A stretch of 64,000 nt of DNA from Escherichia coli (GTDB lineage: Bacteria > Pseudomonadota > Gammaproteobacteria > Enterobacterales > Enterobacteriaceae), in the NCBI RefSeq assembly GCF_002854065.1, contig NZ_CP024147.1. One strand, given 5' to 3'. The notes under the pieces were generated by a model that made no database searches, was not told the DNA's origin, and saw only the letters and a program-made list of their open reading frames with translations. The position numbers and the translations under genes are program-made. This document shows, piece by piece, positions 4,371-60,304 of the stretch. Numbering within the stretch: position 1 is the first letter of the stretch; each line of letters starts with the position of its first letter.

Positions 4371-5500
4371 TATGCGCCCTCCCCAAGACCAGCAGCGATA
4401 GCGTCGCCGATTGCTTTCAGCGCCTGTTCAGCATCTGCACCCTGGGCGGTAAAGCGTAGGCGATGACCTTTCTTAACGCCAAGTGCCACAACTTTCATCA
4501 GACTACGTCCGTTTGCCGGTTTGCCGGTGCCATCAAGGTTTGTCACGGTAATATCACTGTTAAATTGTTTAATGGTGTTGACCAGCATGGTACCTGGACG
4601 AGCATGCAGGCCGTGTTCATTGCGCACCACAAACTCCGCGCTTAACACGTCGTCGGTCGGCGCATCATCGCTGGTCAGCAGCGCCAGCAACGTTGCCGCA
4701 TCCGCTTTCAGCAAGCGGTCAGCTTTATTGTCGAGCAACAAATCAGCGAGACGCTTAAGAACCGCAATGGGCTGATCGTCATTCATCGCCACACTCACCA
4801 GCATGGCTGCCGTTTCGCCGTCCACATCAAAAGCATTTGCCGCACGGCTTACCGCAATCGCGCTACGCAGATTGCCTTCGGCGCTATCGCTCAGCCAGAT
4901 ACCCTGTCCGAGATTCAGCGGTTGTTCATTGATGGCTTTGGTGACGAAAGAGGCGTCAACTGCCCCCGCCTCTTTCAGACGCGCAGCGTTCAGCGCCTGA
5001 AGAGTCAGCAGATCGCTGGCGACGATATCCAGCGTCAGCATTTCGTTGTCGAGCTTCAACTGCTCACTCTGCTTTTCGCCCATCAGCAATGCGCGAAGTT
5101 CTTCTGCTGTTGTTGCTGACTTCAGTTGTTCAGCAACGGAATCATCGCTCAGTACGTGGGTCAGCTGGCGTAGCAGGCCCAGATGCTCATCCGAGCTGGC
5201 AGCAATACCGATCGCTACGTACGCTACCTGACCGTCACCCCAAGTGACGCCTTCCGGGAACTGAAATACCTGAACGCCGGTTTTCAGCACCTGATCGCGG
5301 GTGTCGGTAGTGCCGTGTGGAATAGCAATACCATTGCCGAGGAACGTTGAGGTTTGCTGTTCGCGCGCCAGCATGCCATTGACGTAGCCTTCTGCTACAT
5401 TACCGGCCTGCACCAGCGCCGCAGCGACCTGGCGAATCGCCTCTTCTTTGTCTCCGGCCTTTTCGCCCGGATGGATGTCCTGTACGGATAACTGGAACAT
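4370..5500 (-). CDS. fruB: PTS fructose-specific EIIA / FPr fusion protein
   Basis: 376-aa ORF, first gene of fruBKA; Cra operator motif about 90 bp upstream. Confidence 0.93.
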
Positions 5501-24414: not shown

Positions 24415-24807
<393 letters not shown>

Positions 24808-24887: not shown

Positions 24888-24920
24888 TTTTTGCAGGCCA
24901 GATAAGGCGTTCACGCCGCA
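24888..24920. repeat. Single REP-like palindromic element
   Basis: gccagataaggcgttcacgccgcatctggc: imperfect palindrome resembling REP units, between the rplY terminator and the yejK 3' end. Confidence 0.5.
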
Positions 24921-24945
24921 TCTGGCATTCAGAACACAAAGCCGA

Positions 24946-28216: not shown

Positions 28217-28293
28217 CGGCACGTAGCGCAGCCTGGTAGCGCACCGTCATGGGGTGTCGGGGGTCGGAGGTTCAAATCCTCTCGTGCCGACCA
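28217..28293 (+). tRNA. proL: tRNA-Pro
   Basis: 77-nt cloverleaf sequence CGGCACGTAGCGCAGCCTGGTAGCGCACCGTCATGGGGTG...TTCAAATCCTCTCGTGCCGACCA with encoded CCA end; acceptor stem CGGCACG/CGTGCCG; anticodon loop contains GGG (assigned from memory of proL). Confidence 0.92.
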
Positions 28294-44533: not shown

Positions 44534-45022
44534 ATGAAGACCATTCTACCTGCAGTATTGTTTGCCGCTTTCGCCACCACTTCCGCCTGGGCGGCAGAGA
44601 GCGTCCAGCCACTGGAAAAAATCGCGCCTTATCCACAAGCTGAAAAAGGCATGAAGCGTCAGGTGATTCAGTTAACCCCGCAAGAAGATGAATCTACCCT
44701 GAAAGTAGAACTGTTAATCGGTCAGACGCTGGAAGTCGATTGCAATTTTCATCGTCTCGGCGGGAAGCTGGAAAGCAAAACGCTGGAAGGCTGGGGCTAT
44801 GATTATTATGTCTTTGATAAAGTTAGCTCGCCGGTTTCCACGATGATGGCCTGCCCGGATGGCAAGAAAGAGAAGAAATTTGTCACCGCGTATCTGGGCG
44901 ATGCTGGAATGCTGCGTTACAACAGCAAGCTGCCGATCGTGGTGTATACGCCAGACAATGTAGATGTGAAGTACCGCGTCTGGAAGGCGGAAGAGAAAAT
45001 TGACAACGCGGTAGTTCGCTAA
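44534..45022 (+). CDS. eco: Ecotin (periplasmic serine protease inhibitor)
   Basis: 162-aa ORF with signal peptide; matches ecotin as recalled. Confidence 0.95.
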
Positions 45023-45028
45023 ACTGCC

Positions 45029-45395
45029 GTGAAGTGCGGCACCCCGTAGGTTGGATAAAGCGGTCACGCCGCATCCGACATCTAACGCCCGAGCCGGTTG
45101 CCTGATGCGACGCTGACGCGTGTTATCAGGCCTACACCGCTGTGAAGTGCTCCACCCCGTAGGTCGGATAAGGCGGTTACGCCGCATCCGACATCCAACG
45201 TCCGAGCCGGTTGCCTGATGCGACGCTGACGCGTCTTATCAGGCCTACACCGCTGTGAAGTGCGGCACCCCATAGGTTGGATAAGGCGGTTACGCCGCAT
45301 CCGACATCCAACGCCCGAGCCGGTTGCCTGATGCGACGCTGGCGCGTCTTATCAGCATACGCCACATCCGGCATACCATGCCGGATGTGGCACAT
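45029..45395. repeat. BIME/REP array: three tandem 113-bp units plus a terminal perfect hairpin
   Basis: Unit starts at 45029, 45142 and 45255 (period 113), each carrying two REP-like palindromes; followed by perfect 14-bp inverted repeat gccacatccggcat/atgccggatgtggc (45361-45391) abutting the mqo stop. Confidence 0.85.
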
Positions 45396-45397
45396 CA

Positions 45398-47056
<1,659 letters not shown>

Positions 47057-53245: not shown

Positions 53246-53397
53246 AAGGGAACTTTTTAAGATTATTACGGAATGGCGAAATAAGCACCTAACATCAAGC
53301 AATAATAATTCAAGGTTAAAATCAATAACTTATTCTTAAGTATTTGACAGCACTGAATGTCAAAACAAAACCTTCACTCGCAACTAGAATAACTCCC

Positions 53398-53490
53398 GCT
53401 ATCATCATTAACTTTATTTATTACCGTCATTCATTTCTGAATGTCTGTTTACCCCTATTTCAACCGGATGCCTCGCATCCGGTTTTTTTT
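53398..53490 (+). ncRNA. micF: MicF antisense sRNA (represses ompF translation)
   Basis: GCTATCATCATTAACTTTATTTATTACCGTCATTCATTTCTGAATGTCTGTTTACCCCTATTTCAACCGGATGCCTCGCATCCGGTTTTTTTT: matches micF as recalled, ending in a hairpin terminator with U-run; divergent from ompC. Confidence 0.9.
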
Positions 53491-53801: not shown

Positions 53802-56474
53802 ATGCGTCAGAAAGAGACAACGGCCACGACCCGCTTTTCACTCCTACCGGGGAGCATTACCCGCTTCTTTTTACTGTTGATCATTGTGTTACTGGTGACG
53901 ATGGGGGTAATGGTACAAAGCGCCGTTAACGCCTGGCTGAAAGATAAAAGTTACCAGATTGTCGACATTACCCACGCAATCCAAAAGCGCGTCGATACCT
54001 GGCGTTACGTGACCTGGCAGATCTACGACAACATTGCCGCGACGACCTCCCCCTCCTCCGGCGAAGGTTTACAAGAGACGCGCCTGAAACAGGATGTCTA
54101 CTATCTGGAAAAACCGCGCCGCAAAACGGAAGCGTTAATCTTTGGCTCTCACGACAACTCAACGCTTGAGATGACTCAACGGATGTCCACCTATCTGGAC
54201 ACATTGTGGGGCGCAGAAAATGTACCGTGGTCGATGTATTACCTGAATGGTCAGGATAACAGTCTGGTGCTGATCTCAACCCTGCCCCTCAAAGATCTCA
54301 CCTCCGGATTTAAAGAATCGACCGTCAGTGACATTGTTGATTCACGTCGTGCAGAGATGTTGCAACAGGCCAACGCCCTCGATGAACGCGAAAGTTTTTC
54401 TAACATGCGCCGCCTGGCCTGGCAGAACGGTCATTACTTTACCTTGCGTACCACGTTCAACCAGCCGGGACATCTGGCAACGGTTGTGGCTTTTGATCTG
54501 CCGATTAATGATTTGATCCCACCGGGTATGCCGCTGGACAGTTTCCGCCTTGAGCCAGACGCGACGGCAACGGGAGACAATGATAATGAGAAAGAAGGGA
54601 CGGATAGCGTCAGTATCCACTTTAACAGTACGAAGATTGAAATCTCCTCGGCACTCAACTCTACCGATATGCGACTGGTCTGGCAGGTTCCTTATGGCAC
54701 CTTATTGCTGGATACGTTGCAAAACATTCTGCTGCCACTGCTGCTGAACATCGGTTTGCTGGCGCTGGCGTTATTTGGCTATACCACATTCCGCCATTTC
54801 TCCAGTCGCAGTACAGAAAGTCTACCCAACACGGCGGTCAATAACGAATTGCGCATTTTACGGGCAATCAATGAAGAGATAGTCTCACTGCTGCCGCTCG
54901 GCCTGCTGGTTCACGATCAGGAATCGAACCGCACTGTCATAAGTAACAAAATTGCCGATCATTTGCTGCCGCATTTGAATCTGCAAAACATCACCACCAT
55001 GGCGGAACAGCATCAGGGGATTATTCAGGCGACGATCAATAACGAGCTGTATGAGATCCGCATGTTCCGCAGCCAGGTCGCGCCGCGCACACAAATTTTC
55101 ATTATTCGCGATCAGGATCGCGAAGTGCTGGTAAACAAGAAACTCAAGCAGGCGCAGCGTCTGTATGAGAAAAACCAGCAGGGGCGGATGACCTTTATGA
55201 AAAACATTGGCGATGCGCTGAAAGAACCTGCACAGTCCCTGGCGGAGAGCGCGGCTAAACTCAACGCCCCGGAAAGCAAACAACTGGCGAATCAGGCAGA
55301 TGTGCTGGTGCGGCTGGTCGATGAAATACAGTTAGCGAACATGCTTGCGGACGATAGCTGGAAAAGTGAGACGGTGCTGTTCTCCGTGCAGGATTTAATT
55401 GATGAAGTTGTGCCTTCAGTGTTGCCTGCCATCAAGCGTAAAGGTCTGCAACTGCTGATTAACAATCATCTGAAAGCACACGATATGCGCCGCGGCGATC
55501 GCGATGCCTTACGACGTATTTTGCTGCTACTGATGCAATATGCCGTGACCTCAACGCAATTGGGAAAAATCACCCTTGAGGTTGATCAGGATGAGTCCTC
55601 CGAAGACCGCCTGACGTTCCGCATTCTGGACACCGGAGAAGGCGTAAGCATTCATGAAATGGATAATTTGCACTTCCCGTTTATCAACCTGACCCAAAAC
55701 GATCGCTATGGCAAGGCGGACCCGCTGGCATTCTGGCTGAGCGATCAACTGGCACGTAAACTGGGCGGTCATTTAAACATCAAAACGCGGGATGGGCTTG
55801 GTACACGCTACTCTGTGCATATCAAAATGCTCGCAGCTGACCCGGAAGTTGAAGAGGAAGAAGAGCGTTTACTGGATGATGTCTGCGTAATGGTGGATGT
55901 TACTTCGGCAGAAATTCGGAATATTGTCACTCGCCAGTTAGAAAATTGGGGTGCAACCTGTATCACACCCGATGAAAGATTAATTAGTCAAGATTATGAT
56001 ATCTTTTTAACGGATAATCCGTCTAATCTTACTGCCTCTGGCTTGCTTTTAAGCGATGATGAGTCTGGCGTACGGGAAATTGGGCCTGGTCAATTGTGCG
56101 TCAACTTCAATATGAGCAACGCTATGCAGGAAGCGGTCTTACAATTAATTGAAGTGCAACTGGCGCAGGAAGAGGTGACAGAATCGCCTCTGGGCGGAGA
56201 TGAAAATGCGCAACTCCATGCCAGCGGCTATTATGCGCTCTTTGTAGACACAGTACCGGATGATGTTAAGAGGCTGTATACTGAAGCAGCAACCAGTGAC
56301 TTTGCTGCGTTAGCCCAAACGGCTCATCGTCTTAAAGGCGTATTTGCCATGCTAAATCTGGTACCCGGCAAGCAGTTATGTGAAACGCTGGAACATCTGA
56401 TTCGTGAGAAGGATGTTCCAGGAATAGAAAAATACATCAGCGACATTGACAGTTATGTCAAGAGCTTGCTGTAG
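53802..56474 (+). CDS. rcsD: Rcs phosphorelay phosphotransfer protein RcsD
   Basis: 890-aa ORF with N-terminal TM/periplasmic region and C-terminal HPt domain; immediately upstream of rcsB. Confidence 0.92.
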   Translation: MRQKETTATTRFSLLPGSITRFFLLLIIVLLVTMGVMVQSAVNAWLKDKSYQIVDITHAIQKRVDTWRYVTWQIYDNIAATTSPSSGEGLQETRLKQDVYYLEKPRRKTEALIFGSHDNSTLEMTQRMSTYLDTLWGAENVPWSMYYLNGQDNSLVLISTLPLKDLTSGFKESTVSDIVDSRRAEMLQQANALDERESFSNMRRLAWQNGHYFTLRTTFNQPGHLATVVAFDLPINDLIPPGMPLDSFRLEPDATATGDNDNEKEGTDSVSIHFNSTKIEISSALNSTDMRLVWQVPYGTLLLDTLQNILLPLLLNIGLLALALFGYTTFRHFSSRSTESLPNTAVNNELRILRAINEEIVSLLPLGLLVHDQESNRTVISNKIADHLLPHLNLQNITTMAEQHQGIIQATINNELYEIRMFRSQVAPRTQIFIIRDQDREVLVNKKLKQAQRLYEKNQQGRMTFMKNIGDALKEPAQSLAESAAKLNAPESKQLANQADVLVRLVDEIQLANMLADDSWKSETVLFSVQDLIDEVVPSVLPAIKRKGLQLLINNHLKAHDMRRGDRDALRRILLLLMQYAVTSTQLGKITLEVDQDESSEDRLTFRILDTGEGVSIHEMDNLHFPFINLTQNDRYGKADPLAFWLSDQLARKLGGHLNIKTRDGLGTRYSVHIKMLAADPEVEEEEERLLDDVCVMVDVTSAEIRNIVTRQLENWGATCITPDERLISQDYDIFLTDNPSNLTASGLLLSDDESGVREIGPGQLCVNFNMSNAMQEAVLQLIEVQLAQEEVTESPLGGDENAQLHASGYYALFVDTVPDDVKRLYTEAATSDFAALAQTAHRLKGVFAMLNLVPGKQLCETLEHLIREKDVPGIEKYISDIDSYVKSLL

Positions 56475-56490
56475 CAAGGTAGCCTATTAC

Positions 56491-57141
56491 ATGAACAATA
56501 TGAACGTAATTATTGCCGATGACCATCCGATAGTCTTGTTCGGTATTCGCAAATCACTTGAGCAAATTGAGTGGGTGAATGTTGTCGGCGAATTTGAAGA
56601 CTCTACAGCACTGATCAACAACCTGCCGAAACTGGATGCGCATGTGTTGATTACCGATCTCTCCATGCCTGGCGATAAGTACGGCGATGGCATTACCTTA
56701 ATTAAGTACATCAAGCGCCATTTCCCAAGCCTGTCGATCATTGTTCTGACTATGAACAACAACCCGGCGATTCTTAGTGCGGTATTGGATCTGGATATCG
56801 AAGGGATCGTGCTAAAACAAGGTGCACCGACCGATCTGCCGAAAGCTCTCGCCGCGCTGCAGAAAGGGAAGAAATTTACCCCGGAAAGCGTTTCTCGCCT
56901 GTTGGAAAAAATCAGTGCTGGTGGTTACGGTGACAAGCGTCTCTCGCCAAAAGAGAGTGAAGTTCTGCGCCTGTTTGCGGAAGGCTTCCTGGTGACCGAG
57001 ATCGCTAAAAAGCTGAACCGCAGTATTAAAACCATCAGTAGCCAGAAGAAATCTGCGATGATGAAGCTGGGTGTCGAGAACGATATCGCCCTGCTGAATT
57101 ATCTCTCTTCTGTGACCTTAAGTCCGGCAGATAAAGACTAA
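56491..57141 (+). CDS. rcsB: Response regulator RcsB
   Basis: 216-aa product from ATG 56491 (MNNMNVIIADDHPIV...), receiver + LuxR-type HTH; track ORF extends upstream in frame. Confidence 0.95.
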   Translation: MNNMNVIIADDHPIVLFGIRKSLEQIEWVNVVGEFEDSTALINNLPKLDAHVLITDLSMPGDKYGDGITLIKYIKRHFPSLSIIVLTMNNNPAILSAVLDLDIEGIVLKQGAPTDLPKALAALQKGKKFTPESVSRLLEKISAGGYGDKRLSPKESEVLRLFAEGFLVTEIAKKLNRSIKTISSQKKSAMMKLGVENDIALLNYLSSVTLSPADKD

Positions 57142-57147
57142 TCATCT

Positions 57148-57462
57148 GTAGGCCAGATAAGACGCGTTAGTGTCTTATCTGGCATTTGCACCGATTGCCG
57201 GATGCGGCGTAAACGCCTTATCCGTCCTACGATTCCCATTATTTCAACAGATTACATTAAAGTAGGCCAGATAAGACGCGTCAGCGTCGCATCTGGCATT
57301 TGCACTGAATGCCAGATGCGGCGTAAACGCCTTATCCGTCCTACGATTCCCATTATTTCAACAGATTACATTAAAGTAGGCCAGATAAGACGCGTCAGCG
57401 TCGCATCTGGCATTTGCACTGAATGCCAGATGCGGCGTAAACGCCTTATCCGTCCTACGAAT
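57148..57462. repeat. BIME/REP array: three tandem 114-bp units between convergent rcsB and rcsC
   Basis: Unit starts at 57148, 57262 and 57376 (period 114), each carrying REP-like palindromes (gccagataagacgcg...cgcatctggc and gccagatgcggcgtaaacgccttatcc); last unit runs into the rcsC stop codon. Confidence 0.85.
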
Positions 57463-60304
57463 CCCGCGATTTCCTGACCCTCTCGGCATATACCGTCAGC
57501 GTCTGTTTTATCACATCCAGCGTTACCGGCTTCGACAGGCAGCTGTCCATACCGGACTCCAGACACCGCTGCTTCTCTTCAGCCAACGCATTAGCAGTTA
57601 CTCCGATTACCGGCAACGTCAGTCCCAACTGACGAATGCGTTGCGTCAAGCGGTAACCATCCATATTTGGCATGTTGACGTCGCTAAGCACGATATCAAT
57701 ATGATTCTTGCTAAGTACATTAAGCGCATCGACGCCATCATTCGCGGTTTTACATTGATAGCCCAACGATCCCAACTGATCTGCCAGCAGACGTCGGTTA
57801 ATCGGATGATCATCCACGACCAGAATCATCATATCGTCATTATCGCTGACCGCTTTGTCCGTCGACGGCAGAGCGTTAGCAGGATCGTCGCTCTCCATCT
57901 CGATCAAATAAATACGCGCCAACAATGCCGGTAGCTCATGCGGAGCAGCCACACTGTGTACCCACTCCCCTGGCGCTTTCTCCAGCGGAATACCAATATG
58001 TCGACGACAGAAGGTCACTACCGCTCTGCCCTGCCATTTTTTACTCACTACCTCGTCAGTGATTAACACATCTTCGGGAGTCGGTTCCTGCCCTTCGTAT
58101 GTTGTAACGACGATGCCGCTGCGCTGCAAACTGGTTTCCAGGAACTGACAGAGCGACGCATTGCGGACCGCCAGCCAGCAGCGTTTACCACTCAGCCCTT
58201 CCACGCCTTTTTTCTGCGGGTACTGAGCGCCGTACAACGGAATACGCACGGTAAACTGGCTGCCCATTCCCGGTTCTGAATCTACCGAGATGTCGCCGTC
58301 CATCATGCTGATCAGTTTTTCACAAATCGCCAGACCCAGACCGGTCCCCTGGAAGTTTCGCTGTACGCCCGTTCCGACCTGGAAGAAGGGATCAAACAAG
58401 CGCACCACTTCTTTCGCCGGAATCCCCACGCCGGTATCGCGAACACGGATAGAGAGATAATCGCCATCAGCGCGGACATGCAAAACTATACAGCCGGTAT
58501 CAGTGAATTTTATGGCGTTACTCAACAGGTTGGAGATGACCTGCTGTAAACGCATCGGGTCGCCATTTAAAGCCACTGGCACATCCGGTTCAATAAAGCA
58601 GTACAAGCCTAACTGCTTGCGTACCACCAGCGGTAAATAGTTGGCGGTGATGTGGTTCATCACTTCACGCGGTGAAAACTCACGCGGTTCGATCTTCAAC
58701 TGTTCCGATTCAATCTTCGAGAAATCGAGAATATCGCTGATAATTTTCAACAACAGGCTGGAAGAGTTGTTCATTGCCGTCACCAGACGATCGACGCCTT
58801 TCGGTAACTCTTTGGTTTGCAACAGATCCAGGTTACCGATAATGCCATACAGCGGCGTTCGCAGCTCATGACTGACGGTGGCAAGGAACATCGATTTTGA
58901 CTGGCTCGCCTGTTCCGCTGCTTGTGCCATCTCCTGCAACGACTCTTCCATCTTCACGCGCGAAGAAACATCCACCAGCACACAAATGGCCACGTTTTCA
59001 TTACGATAGCGCGAATGGACGAAGCTGATTTGCAGATTGGTATTGTTGCTGGTCAGGACATCAACAAAATTGACCTGCTGCCCACAGATAATTTGTGTCA
59101 GCCGTTGGCGGTCCTCATGCGTAAGCATATTGAGATAGGTATGCGCCAGTTCGTTACTTAAAATATTGACGCCATCTGCGGTACGCAAAATACAGATACC
59201 CACTGGCGCGGAGGCGACAATCTTGCGGTTAAACTGCTCATGTTCTTCCAGTCGCAGGGCATCGCTTTCCGCCGGAATGAAAATACGCCGCTCGTACATC
59301 CGCGCGAGAGTAAACAATGCAGCTCCAGCAAGCACATTCAGCAAAATTGCGTTAAGGATCAACATGCGAATGCGTTCCAGCACCTTATCAACCGGCACCG
59401 AATAAACGATGCTTAGCGATGAGGGAGGCAGATTTTTCTTCAGCACCAGCTCCCGGAAACCTTCCGTATAGCCAAACCAGGAGCGTTCCTGCATCCAGCG
59501 AGGATCGCCCTTAATTTTGCTTTCTGGTCCGGTAAGCGAAATCAGGGTATGACCATTTTCATCAAGAATGGTAACCCCCATCGGCAACGTACCCGGTAAG
59601 AAAAAATTCTCCATCCGGATGGTCTGCTCGACACCCAAAAGCGCCTGCAACCTGTTCGCCAGATAAACTGGCGTCAACGCGTAAAAATACCCGACGCCAG
59701 GGCGCGGACCTTCGCTGATCCAGTAGAGGTTACTGCCGCTATCATCTTGTGGTGCATTTCGATATTTATTGATGCGTTCATGCAACGCTTTCAACGCGGT
59801 ATCGCGTTCCACTGGCATATCACGCAGACCGAAATTGGCCATGCAGAGGTTATCGCTGCCGATTAAAAATACCCGGTTGAGATCGTAAGCCGCAGAAAAA
59901 TTATCGCGCCAGTAGCGCATAAACCACGCCAATGACTCCAGAGAACCTCGCCAGGTGTTACTCATTGCGGAACAATCGGAGTCGGCAAACAGCGGTTCAA
60001 ACGCAGGCACATCCGCCTGCGTTTCTCGTCCACGCGGGGAAAGCACACCGTTTTCTGCCGATAAGCGATTTTCAGCGATGTACTTCAGCTCTTTCATCAC
60101 ATCAGAGGTGCGTTGAATAAAGCGCTGAGCCTGATCGGAACTCAGATTAAATTCCTGACGAATTTCCGATTCTCGCTGATGTAACGCATTAACGATGTAA
60201 AAAACGGATGAAAAAGCAATCAACAGCCAGAGCACTAACGCCAATGCTCTGAACATGTAGCGCGAGGCTTTCAGGGTTGTACGAAAAGAAGCAAGGTATT
60301 TCAA
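57455..60304 (-). CDS. rcsC: Hybrid sensor histidine kinase RcsC
   Basis: 949-aa ORF with N-terminal TM/periplasmic domain, HisKA/HATPase core and C-terminal receiver domain. Confidence 0.93.
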   Translation of the reverse strand: MKYLASFRTTLKASRYMFRALALVLWLLIAFSSVFYIVNALHQRESEIRQEFNLSSDQAQRFIQRTSDVMKELKYIAENRLSAENGVLSPRGRETQADVPAFEPLFADSDCSAMSNTWRGSLESLAWFMRYWRDNFSAAYDLNRVFLIGSDNLCMANFGLRDMPVERDTALKALHERINKYRNAPQDDSGSNLYWISEGPRPGVGYFYALTPVYLANRLQALLGVEQTIRMENFFLPGTLPMGVTILDENGHTLISLTGPESKIKGDPRWMQERSWFGYTEGFRELVLKKNLPPSSLSIVYSVPVDKVLERIRMLILNAILLNVLAGAALFTLARMYERRIFIPAESDALRLEEHEQFNRKIVASAPVGICILRTADGVNILSNELAHTYLNMLTHEDRQRLTQIICGQQVNFVDVLTSNNTNLQISFVHSRYRNENVAICVLVDVSSRVKMEESLQEMAQAAEQASQSKSMFLATVSHELRTPLYGIIGNLDLLQTKELPKGVDRLVTAMNNSSSLLLKIISDILDFSKIESEQLKIEPREFSPREVMNHITANYLPLVVRKQLGLYCFIEPDVPVALNGDPMRLQQVISNLLSNAIKFTDTGCIVLHVRADGDYLSIRVRDTGVGIPAKEVVRLFDPFFQVGTGVQRNFQGTGLGLAICEKLISMMDGDISVDSEPGMGSQFTVRIPLYGAQYPQKKGVEGLSGKRCWLAVRNASLCQFLETSLQRSGIVVTTYEGQEPTPEDVLITDEVVSKKWQGRAVVTFCRRHIGIPLEKAPGEWVHSVAAPHELPALLARIYLIEMESDDPANALPSTDKAVSDNDDMMILVVDDHPINRRLLADQLGSLGYQCKTANDGVDALNVLSKNHIDIVLSDVNMPNMDGYRLTQRIRQLGLTLPVIGVTANALAEEKQRCLESGMDSCLSKPVTLDVIKQTLTVYAERVRKSRDS

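Follow-up and report, generated by a model that had tools for sequence, protein, structure and literature searches.

The converging genes rcsB and rcsC of Escherichia coli are separated, in the strain considered here, by a tandem repeat that runs into the stop codon of rcsC. This raises the question of what kind of element the repeat is, how it came to have its present number of units and what it may do for the two genes whose ends it joins. We addressed this in a window of 64,000 nucleotides (the whole stretch of DNA analysed, from contig NZ_CP024147.1), to which all coordinates refer unless K-12 positions are given. The features of the locus are as follows.

53802-56474: rcsD, from the open reading frame list
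56446-57141, plus strand: rcsB, from its open reading frame, with which the RefSeq annotation of an identical locus agrees
57139-57141, plus strand: rcsB stop codon TAA, 10 nt upstream of the first REP stem
57147, minus strand: predicted 3' end of the rcsC mRNA, the position homologous to K-12 2316833(-) as mapped by alignment
57148-57183: unit 1 Z2-type REP with GTAG, a perfect 12-bp palindrome, GCCAGATAAGAC / GTCTTATCTGGC, -23.9 / -20.3 kcal/mol
57184-57196: unit 1 head-to-head linker, 13 nt, ATTTGCACCGATT
57197-57230: unit 1 Y-type REP, with CCTAC at its end and 33/34 identity to the REP325 Y REP
57202-57477, plus strand: 91-aa open reading frame with a repeated peptide, judged spurious
57231-57261: tail-to-tail spacer 1, 31 nt, GATTCCCATTATTTCAACAGATTACATTAAA, locus-specific
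57262-57344: unit 2 doublet (Z2 57262-57297, linker 57298-57310, Y 57311-57344)
57345-57375: tail-to-tail spacer 2, identical to spacer 1
57376-57458: unit 3 doublet (Z2 57376-57411, linker 57412-57424, Y 57425-57458)
57455-57457, minus strand: rcsC stop codon TAG, inside the conserved GTAG of the last REP
57455-60304, minus strand: rcsC, from its open reading frame, with which the RefSeq annotation of identical loci agrees

Tandem Repeats Finder returned positions 57148-57465 as one tandem array with a period of 114, 2.8 copies, 96% matches, 0% indels and a score of 580, and a repeat search of the window placed the unit starts at 57148, 57262 and 57376, spaced 114 and 114 nt apart. A preliminary description of this DNA had proposed exact-period 114-bp units at these three positions, which both searches bear out. 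Its count of three tandem units stands for the REP doublets, of which there are three, but not for the spacers; only two are complete, and hence the array amounts to 2.8 units rather than 3. Aligned three ways, the units have a mean column identity of 93%. Units 2 and 3 show no differences over their first 85 nt, units 1 and 2 differ at seven positions, and the likeness of unit 3 to the others fades after about column 98. The array begins (at its first GTAG) 6 nt from the rcsB stop and extends 8-16 nt beyond the rcsC stop into the rcsC coding sequence, the gap between the two genes being 313 bp in the window. This placement between convergent genes and into the rcsC stop, which had also been described beforehand, agrees with the open reading frames and with the RefSeq annotation of identical and near-identical loci.

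Each full unit is built from a 36-nt Z2-type REP with GTAG at its start (GTAGGCCAGATAAGACGCGTCAGCGTCGCATCTGGC), a 13-nt head-to-head linker (ATTTGCACTGAAT), a 34-nt inverted Y-type REP with CTAC at its end (GCCAGATGCGGCGTAAACGCCTTATCCGTCCTAC) and a 31-nt tail-to-tail spacer (GATTCCCATTATTTCAACAGATTACATTAAA). A REP or PU is defined as an imperfect palindrome of 30-40 nt with a conserved GTAG 5' of the stem foot (Ton-Hoang et al. 2012), and the array contains six REPs of 34-36 nt, each of which carries GTAG or CTAC. The REP palindromes that the preliminary description had expected were recovered as two inverted REPs per unit, both by an inverted-repeat search and by matches to GCCNGATGCGNCG. The last REP is not strictly extragenic, since its CTAC shares 4 nt with rcsC (the stop codon and the third base of the Ser codon before it), but its stem lies outside the gene.

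Folding of the region as RNA, a check that had been suggested for the two 3' UTRs, showed it to be far more structured than shuffled sequences (plus strand z = -11.3, minus strand z = -8.9). Unit 2 and unit 3 each give, whichever strand is folded, a single long hairpin of 83 nt (-50.1 / -48.6 kcal/mol), and in unit 1 two separate REP hairpins are favoured over one long hairpin.

The repeat also creates an open reading frame of 91 codons, which stays open because 114 nt equals 38 codons. This frame had been dismissed as spurious in the preliminary description, and we agree that it exists and is no gene. That it encodes a real repeat protein is conceivable in so far as it has an ATG start, no interruption and a repeat period divisible by three. 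However, the PGAP annotation places no gene there in any of the three- or four-doublet genomes inspected, the translation has no Pfam match above cut-off, and its length would shift by 38 aa with every repeat unit. Moreover, it lies wholly within REP sequence and overlaps the end of rcsC on the opposite strand, and no promoter-like site was found in the region on either strand. Hence we rejected this candidate, to which we assign practically no probability.

The element is itself already known. It is an E. coli REP/BIME cluster that K-12 annotation calls REP162, and it is BIME-2-like. Two hairpins at K-12 positions 2316832-2316874 and 2316942-2316985, within REP162 between rcsB and rcsC, were earlier called bidirectional terminators (Harris et al. 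2026, supplementary file 2). The feature table of the K-12 locus (NC_000913.3) listed only three coding sequences, with no repeat_region features. The array alternates Y and Z2 REPs as BIME-2 elements do, Z2 being called over Z1 by comparison with REP325 only, and it is present in multiple tandem copies whose number varies between strains (2.8 copies here; one to four doublets in 5,426 genomes). Compared with the K-12 sequence of REP325, the Y REPs are identical at 32-33 of 34 positions and the Z2 REPs at 29-32 of 36. The REP325-like architecture, an Rfam naRNA4 score above the gathering threshold and the K-12 homologue together confirm the BIME identity that had been claimed from the sequence alone.

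An element of BIME-1 (RIB/RIP) type, with a long linker that binds IHF, would be a different identity. A BIME-1 combines z1 and y REPs with a conserved L linker holding an IHF site, in a single copy, and the array is not so constituted. In its favour, the 31-nt spacer contains TTTCAACAGATTA, which matches the IHF core WATCAANNNNTTR at 8 of 9 positions, with an A/T-rich stretch before it. We rejected this as an IHF site, the match being partial and the exact core absent from the array. Furthermore, the REPs resemble the Y and Z2 types of REP325, the element is tandem whereas BIME-1 is single-copy (Ton-Hoang et al. 2012), and the spacer is unique to this locus and hence no dispersed L motif. We therefore consider a BIME-1 highly improbable. 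By the criterion of the motifs outside the REPs (in a canonical BIME-2, S between REPs and s, l or r beside them), the locus-unique spacer may make the array an atypical BIME.

The start of the spacer at 57231-57261 (GATTCCC-ATT-ATTTC) matches the rcsC 3' end of CFT073 (GATTCCC-GCG-ATTTC) at 12 of the first 15 nt; the likeness may also be put as one between the spacer and the rcsC end at 57459-57478 in the window. It may be due to chance, to a target-site effect or to an old duplication of part of the gene end, and the spacer could also be a remnant of ancestral intergenic DNA.

Counting the units in other E. coli genomes, the check that had been advised for strain variation, was done by comparing the locus with 5,426 complete E. 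coli genomes. The spans of the matches form discrete classes 114 bp apart, and doublet counts were solved from matches to the 31-nt spacer and to a synthetic query with four doublets. The resulting alleles carry one, two, three or four doublets.

One doublet (no spacer match): about 990 of 5,426 genomes, 18%, e.g. CFT073
Two doublets: about 4,404 of 5,426, 81%, e.g. K-12, O157:H7 and IAI1
Three doublets: about 30 of 5,426, 0.55%, including this window
Four doublets: 2 of 5,426, 0.04%, MS 115-1 and CH4799

The spacer was found in 4,436 genomes at 4,470 places (median one per genome, maximum three), with no plasmid occurrences among the 5,426 genomes. The matches listed all fall outside annotated features, at chromosomal positions that agree with this locus. 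A dispersed L-like BIME motif was rejected on this basis, as the spacer has about one place per genome and always at the rcsB-rcsC locus. The synthetic query recovered the two four-doublet genomes (MS 115-1 and CH4799) and 29 three-doublet records. The window allele is identical in strain CUWW06 and nearly identical in XJ34 and XJ6-3. The larger three-doublet group (e.g. T16R) has a different, mosaic middle unit, and the two four-doublet strains also differ between themselves. Since the expanded alleles differ in their internal units, expansion has happened several times. That strains differ in how many BIMEs a given locus carries has been described before (Ton-Hoang et al. 2012).

Compared with K-12, unit 2 is the additional unit. 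The third doublet would have arisen by gain of one 114-bp unit through unequal recombination or replication slippage within the 32-nt tract common to the Y REPs; the middle unit of the window consists of the first 85 nt of the distal unit plus the spacer, which fits one such unequal exchange or slippage event. BIME amplification mediated by a RAYT (TnpA_REP) may be an alternative route, and the RecA, slippage and RAYT routes are not distinguishable from sequence. The K-12 yafM (RAYT) region presumably lies outside this window.

We then compared the locus across species, using one genome per species with RcsB, which gave 80 Enterobacteriaceae loci. In 76 of them rcsC is convergent to rcsB, with a gap of at most 65 nt in 30 of these 76 and REPs (GTAGG or CCTAC) in 25. 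The short gaps that were read (Trabulsiella, Pseudocitrobacter, Klebsiella oxytoca and Citrobacter sedlakii) each contain one plain GC hairpin. A lone tail-to-tail REP pair is present in Salmonella and most Citrobacter, and in E. albertii there are already two doublets, together with a homologous 31-nt spacer. It follows that the state with two doublets is old and that CFT073-type strains, with their one-doublet allele, have probably lost a doublet secondarily. Unusually long gaps occur in Leclercia adecarboxylata (697 nt), Mangrovibacter plantisponsor (1193 nt) and one further species (324 nt), which suggests insertions between the genes in these species.

The rcsC stop of Escherichia is TAG, within the conserved GTAG of the REP. 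We rejected the idea that the C-terminal codons of rcsC derive from REP or spacer sequence: in Trabulsiella and Pseudocitrobacter, which have no REPs there, the protein likewise ends in ...R-E-S, followed by a TAA stop, and the RcsC C-terminus was therefore not created by the REP. The window RcsC and that of K-12 end in ...SRDS, the penultimate codon lying within 57458-57463. The ending is ...SRES in CFT073, TL20, TA8571 and CH4799 and in the three other Escherichia species representatives for which the rcsC end was recovered. This Asp/Glu polymorphism falls in the few codons overlapped by the repeat.

To what extent the array shapes the ends of the two transcripts can be judged from K-12, a two-doublet strain, from which all the transcript data come. 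No intrinsic terminator (hairpin plus T run) was found on either strand between 56400 and 58000. In K-12, Term-seq maps a strong 3' end on the minus strand to 2316833(-) (two entries, with scores of 40,047 and 29,672), the base just after the CCTAC of the rcsB-proximal REP, past the whole array (Adams et al. 2021). Mapping of transcript 3' ends, which had been recommended as a check, thus leads to the foot of a REP, which is where an end should lie if exonucleases degrade the RNA as far as the first stable hairpin. Their curated Term-seq data contain no plus-strand 3' end within the K-12 array. A Rho region at 2317179(+) has a score of 22, with coverage changing from 274 to 14 without bicyclomycin and from 246 to 276 with it, and a second region at 2316687(-) has a score of 2.6 (Adams et al. 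2021); these scores use 800-nt windows and hence do not place termination inside the array. The bicyclomycin data imply that transcription from both genes passes the REPs when Rho is blocked. At the K-12 locus, therefore, termination depends on Rho, and a REP foot forms the end of the rcsC mRNA at least. The preliminary suggestion of a link between the units and rcs transcript ends thus has direct support from K-12, where an end does map to a REP foot, with the qualification that the array holds no intrinsic terminator and Rho acts instead.

More generally, REPs act as partly Rho-dependent attenuators and as blocks to decay, and convergent gene pairs that contain them are more highly expressed, although genome-wide the half-lives of REP-terminal mRNAs are not longer (Harris et al. 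2026). A stop-proximal REP lowers translation when its stem lies within 16 nt of the stop, according to the passages of PMC12306157 that cite Liang et al. 2015. The nearest REP stem is 10 nt from the rcsB stop and 0 nt from the rcsC stop, so that both genes fall within this distance.

The REP at which the K-12 rcsC mRNA ends differs from its neighbours. A two-base mismatch in the stem is found in five of the six REPs and is missing from the rcsB-proximal Z2 REP at 57148-57183, where the change TCGCATC to TCTTATC has produced a perfect palindrome. The mismatch is needed for binding of TnpA_REP, and the same GC-to-TT change abolished both binding and cleavage by this protein in vitro (Ton-Hoang et al. 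2012). The perfect-palindrome form is present in K-12, CFT073, T16R, TL20, MS 115-1 and CH4799 and absent from the divergent strain TA8571, E. albertii and the cryptic Escherichia clades; it is at its foot that the 3' end of the K-12 rcsC mRNA falls. A speculative reading is that this REP was immobilised and kept for its role as the 3' end of the rcsC mRNA.

These observations bear on whether the array is purely selfish, that is, a set of REPIN doublets which the RAYT transposase (TnpA_REP) has amplified in situ and which have no host function. As REPINs should, units 2 and 3 each form one long hairpin, copy number changes recurrently, and TnpA_REP cleaves and recombines BIMEs in vitro, with models for BIME amplification available (Ton-Hoang et al. 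2012). As an account of the origin of the array this is plausible. However, a REP doublet beside each stop codon is kept in essentially all E. coli, two doublets and the homologous spacer are already present in E. albertii, and the ancestral plain hairpin has been lost, leaving the REPs as the sole remaining 3'-end structures. A strong K-12 transcript end at a REP foot, and the change in the rcsB-proximal REP that disables TnpA_REP, also argue against a complete lack of host function, which we regard as unlikely.

A further possibility is that the array works mainly at the DNA level, as a BIME-2-type high-affinity site for binding and cleavage by gyrase which removes positive supercoils between the converging genes. 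Some BIME-2 elements are enriched in gyrase cleavage sites, with Y REPs preferred (Sutormin et al. 2019), and the present array, located between convergent genes, contains Y as well as Z2 REPs. Yet only a subset of BIME-2 elements is cleaved, and the BIME-2 gyrase signal rose when transcription was blocked and is therefore not tied to convergent transcription (Sutormin et al. 2019). The names rcsB and rcsC do not appear in the text of those supplements to that study which were searched, a weak argument since the tables may give coordinates only. We consider gyrase as the main function unlikely; a role for it would be compatible with an RNA-level function, not exclusive of it.

Collectively our data favour, with a probability of about 0.8, a REP162-type array which has gained one unit by slippage or recombination, which serves both genes as a shared Rho-assisted 3'-UTR structure and whose extra unit is near-neutral. 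In such a model the array would be transcribed from both sides and would form the 3' UTR of the convergent rcsB and rcsC mRNAs. As in K-12, Rho would help to halt RNA polymerase within the array or shortly after it, and the REP hairpins would then block 3'-to-5' exonucleases, as the K-12 data suggest, and leave stable mRNA ends. The stop-adjacent REPs may in addition dampen translation termination of rcsB and rcsC. The extra internal unit would add 114 nt to both 3' UTRs and one long hairpin. As the outermost REPs are the same in all alleles, length and a hairpin are mainly what it contributes, and with the stable end at the outermost REP, internal copies probably alter the length of the 3' UTR and have less effect on where the end lies with respect to rcsB. 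The three-doublet variant is thus most likely a near-neutral polymorphism.

It would be of greater consequence if copy number, from one to four doublets, were a heritable dial on the Rcs envelope-stress phosphorelay. In that case the added hairpins would alter Rho-dependent read-through, convergent antisense transcription and ribosome stalling near the stops, and the RcsB:RcsC ratio and the output of capsule and biofilm would shift without any change in coding sequence or promoter. We judge this very unlikely. For annotation, the region deserves a REP/BIME label (REP162 homologue) and the internal open reading frame no gene call; beyond annotation the importance of the locus is small. The natural series of one, two, three and four doublets, with both stops abutting REPs, would nevertheless be a convenient test bed for REPs as tunable 3'-UTR regulators.

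The resemblance to REP325 raises one more reading, in which the units are genes for naRNA4-like nucleoid-associated RNAs that bind HU, bridge cruciform DNA and condense the chromosome. All three doublets match Rfam RF02564 (naRNA4) over the full length of the model (positions 1-77 of 77) in the rcsC-sense orientation. They score 73.7-73.8 bits on the minus strand (73.8 for units 2 and 3), above the gathering score of 59.5, which the plus strand, at 52.5 bits, does not reach. A nucleoid role was proposed for the REP325 units (Qian et al. 2015), on which the Rfam model is built. The model is, however, in effect one of a Z2-Y doublet, because it also matches the unrelated eco-mqo array, and is hence a generic detector of such doublets. 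Deletion or overexpression of REP325 or naRNA4 left nucleoid size unchanged and Hi-C showed no REP-REP contacts (Harris et al. 2026), and the region lacks promoter-like sites for such genes. Taken together, a nucleoid RNA function for these units is improbable, and strongly so.

The eco-mqo array is a second BIME array in the window, at 45029-45355, with a period of 113, 2.9 copies and 93% matches. It also lies between convergent open reading frames, at 44534-45022 (plus strand, 162 aa, probably eco) and 45398-47044 (minus strand, 548 aa, probably mqo). Its naRNA4 matches, on the plus strand, score 75.3 and 60.5 bits, and a further hairpin at about 45355-45395 abuts the stop of the minus-strand gene (probably mqo). 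Elsewhere in the window we noted a lone REP-like match at 24914-24926 on the minus strand, an L25 ribosomal-protein leader at 24476-24501 (Rfam, 46.9 bits), a tRNA gene at 28217-28290 (Rfam tRNA, 54.9 bits) and the MicF sRNA gene at 53397-53490 upstream of rcsD (Rfam, 116.8 bits), as expected in a K-12-like region.

Among known systems, the compact bidirectional terminator hairpin of other Enterobacteriaceae is found in the same place and presumably serves the same purpose, which is to end two convergent transcripts. There the structure is a single GC hairpin of 40-50 nt, in some cases with a T run, whereas E. coli has REPs without a U tract, and termination (in K-12) is Rho-dependent. REPINs are similar in that two inverted REPs about 13 nt apart, with GTAG conserved, form one long hairpin, as units 2 and 3 do at about -50 kcal/mol. 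They differ in being dispersed to new sites, whereas expansion between rcsB and rcsC has been local and tandem.

REP325, the BIME-2 array between yjdM and yjdN that comprises naRNA1-6, consists of six Y + Z2 units of 77 bp (Qian et al. 2015). It shares with the present array the alternating Z2 and Y REPs, identical inter-unit spacers, doublets that pass the Rfam naRNA4 threshold and a head-to-head linker of equal 13-nt length, the two linkers being identical at 8 of 13 positions. REP325 has a period of 100, a 17-nt tail-to-tail spacer and 5.8 copies, and lies inside an operon; the array described here has a period of 114, a 31-nt spacer and 2.8 copies, and is flanked by convergent genes. The longer period is due to the longer spacer. 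At stem position 4 the present REPs have A:T where REP325 has T:A, a compensated change, and, as a further difference, one REP here is a perfect palindrome.

K-12 REP162 is the same element, with the same locus, flanks, REP types, linker and 31-nt spacer and with nearly identical first and last units. It has two doublets in a 199-bp gap where the window has three in 313 bp, a difference of exactly one unit, namely the middle unit made of the first 85 nt of the distal unit and the spacer, which has no counterpart in REP162. Hence neither the kind of array nor its copy-number polymorphism is new in element or mechanism, and what distinguishes the window is a rare allele with one extra unit.
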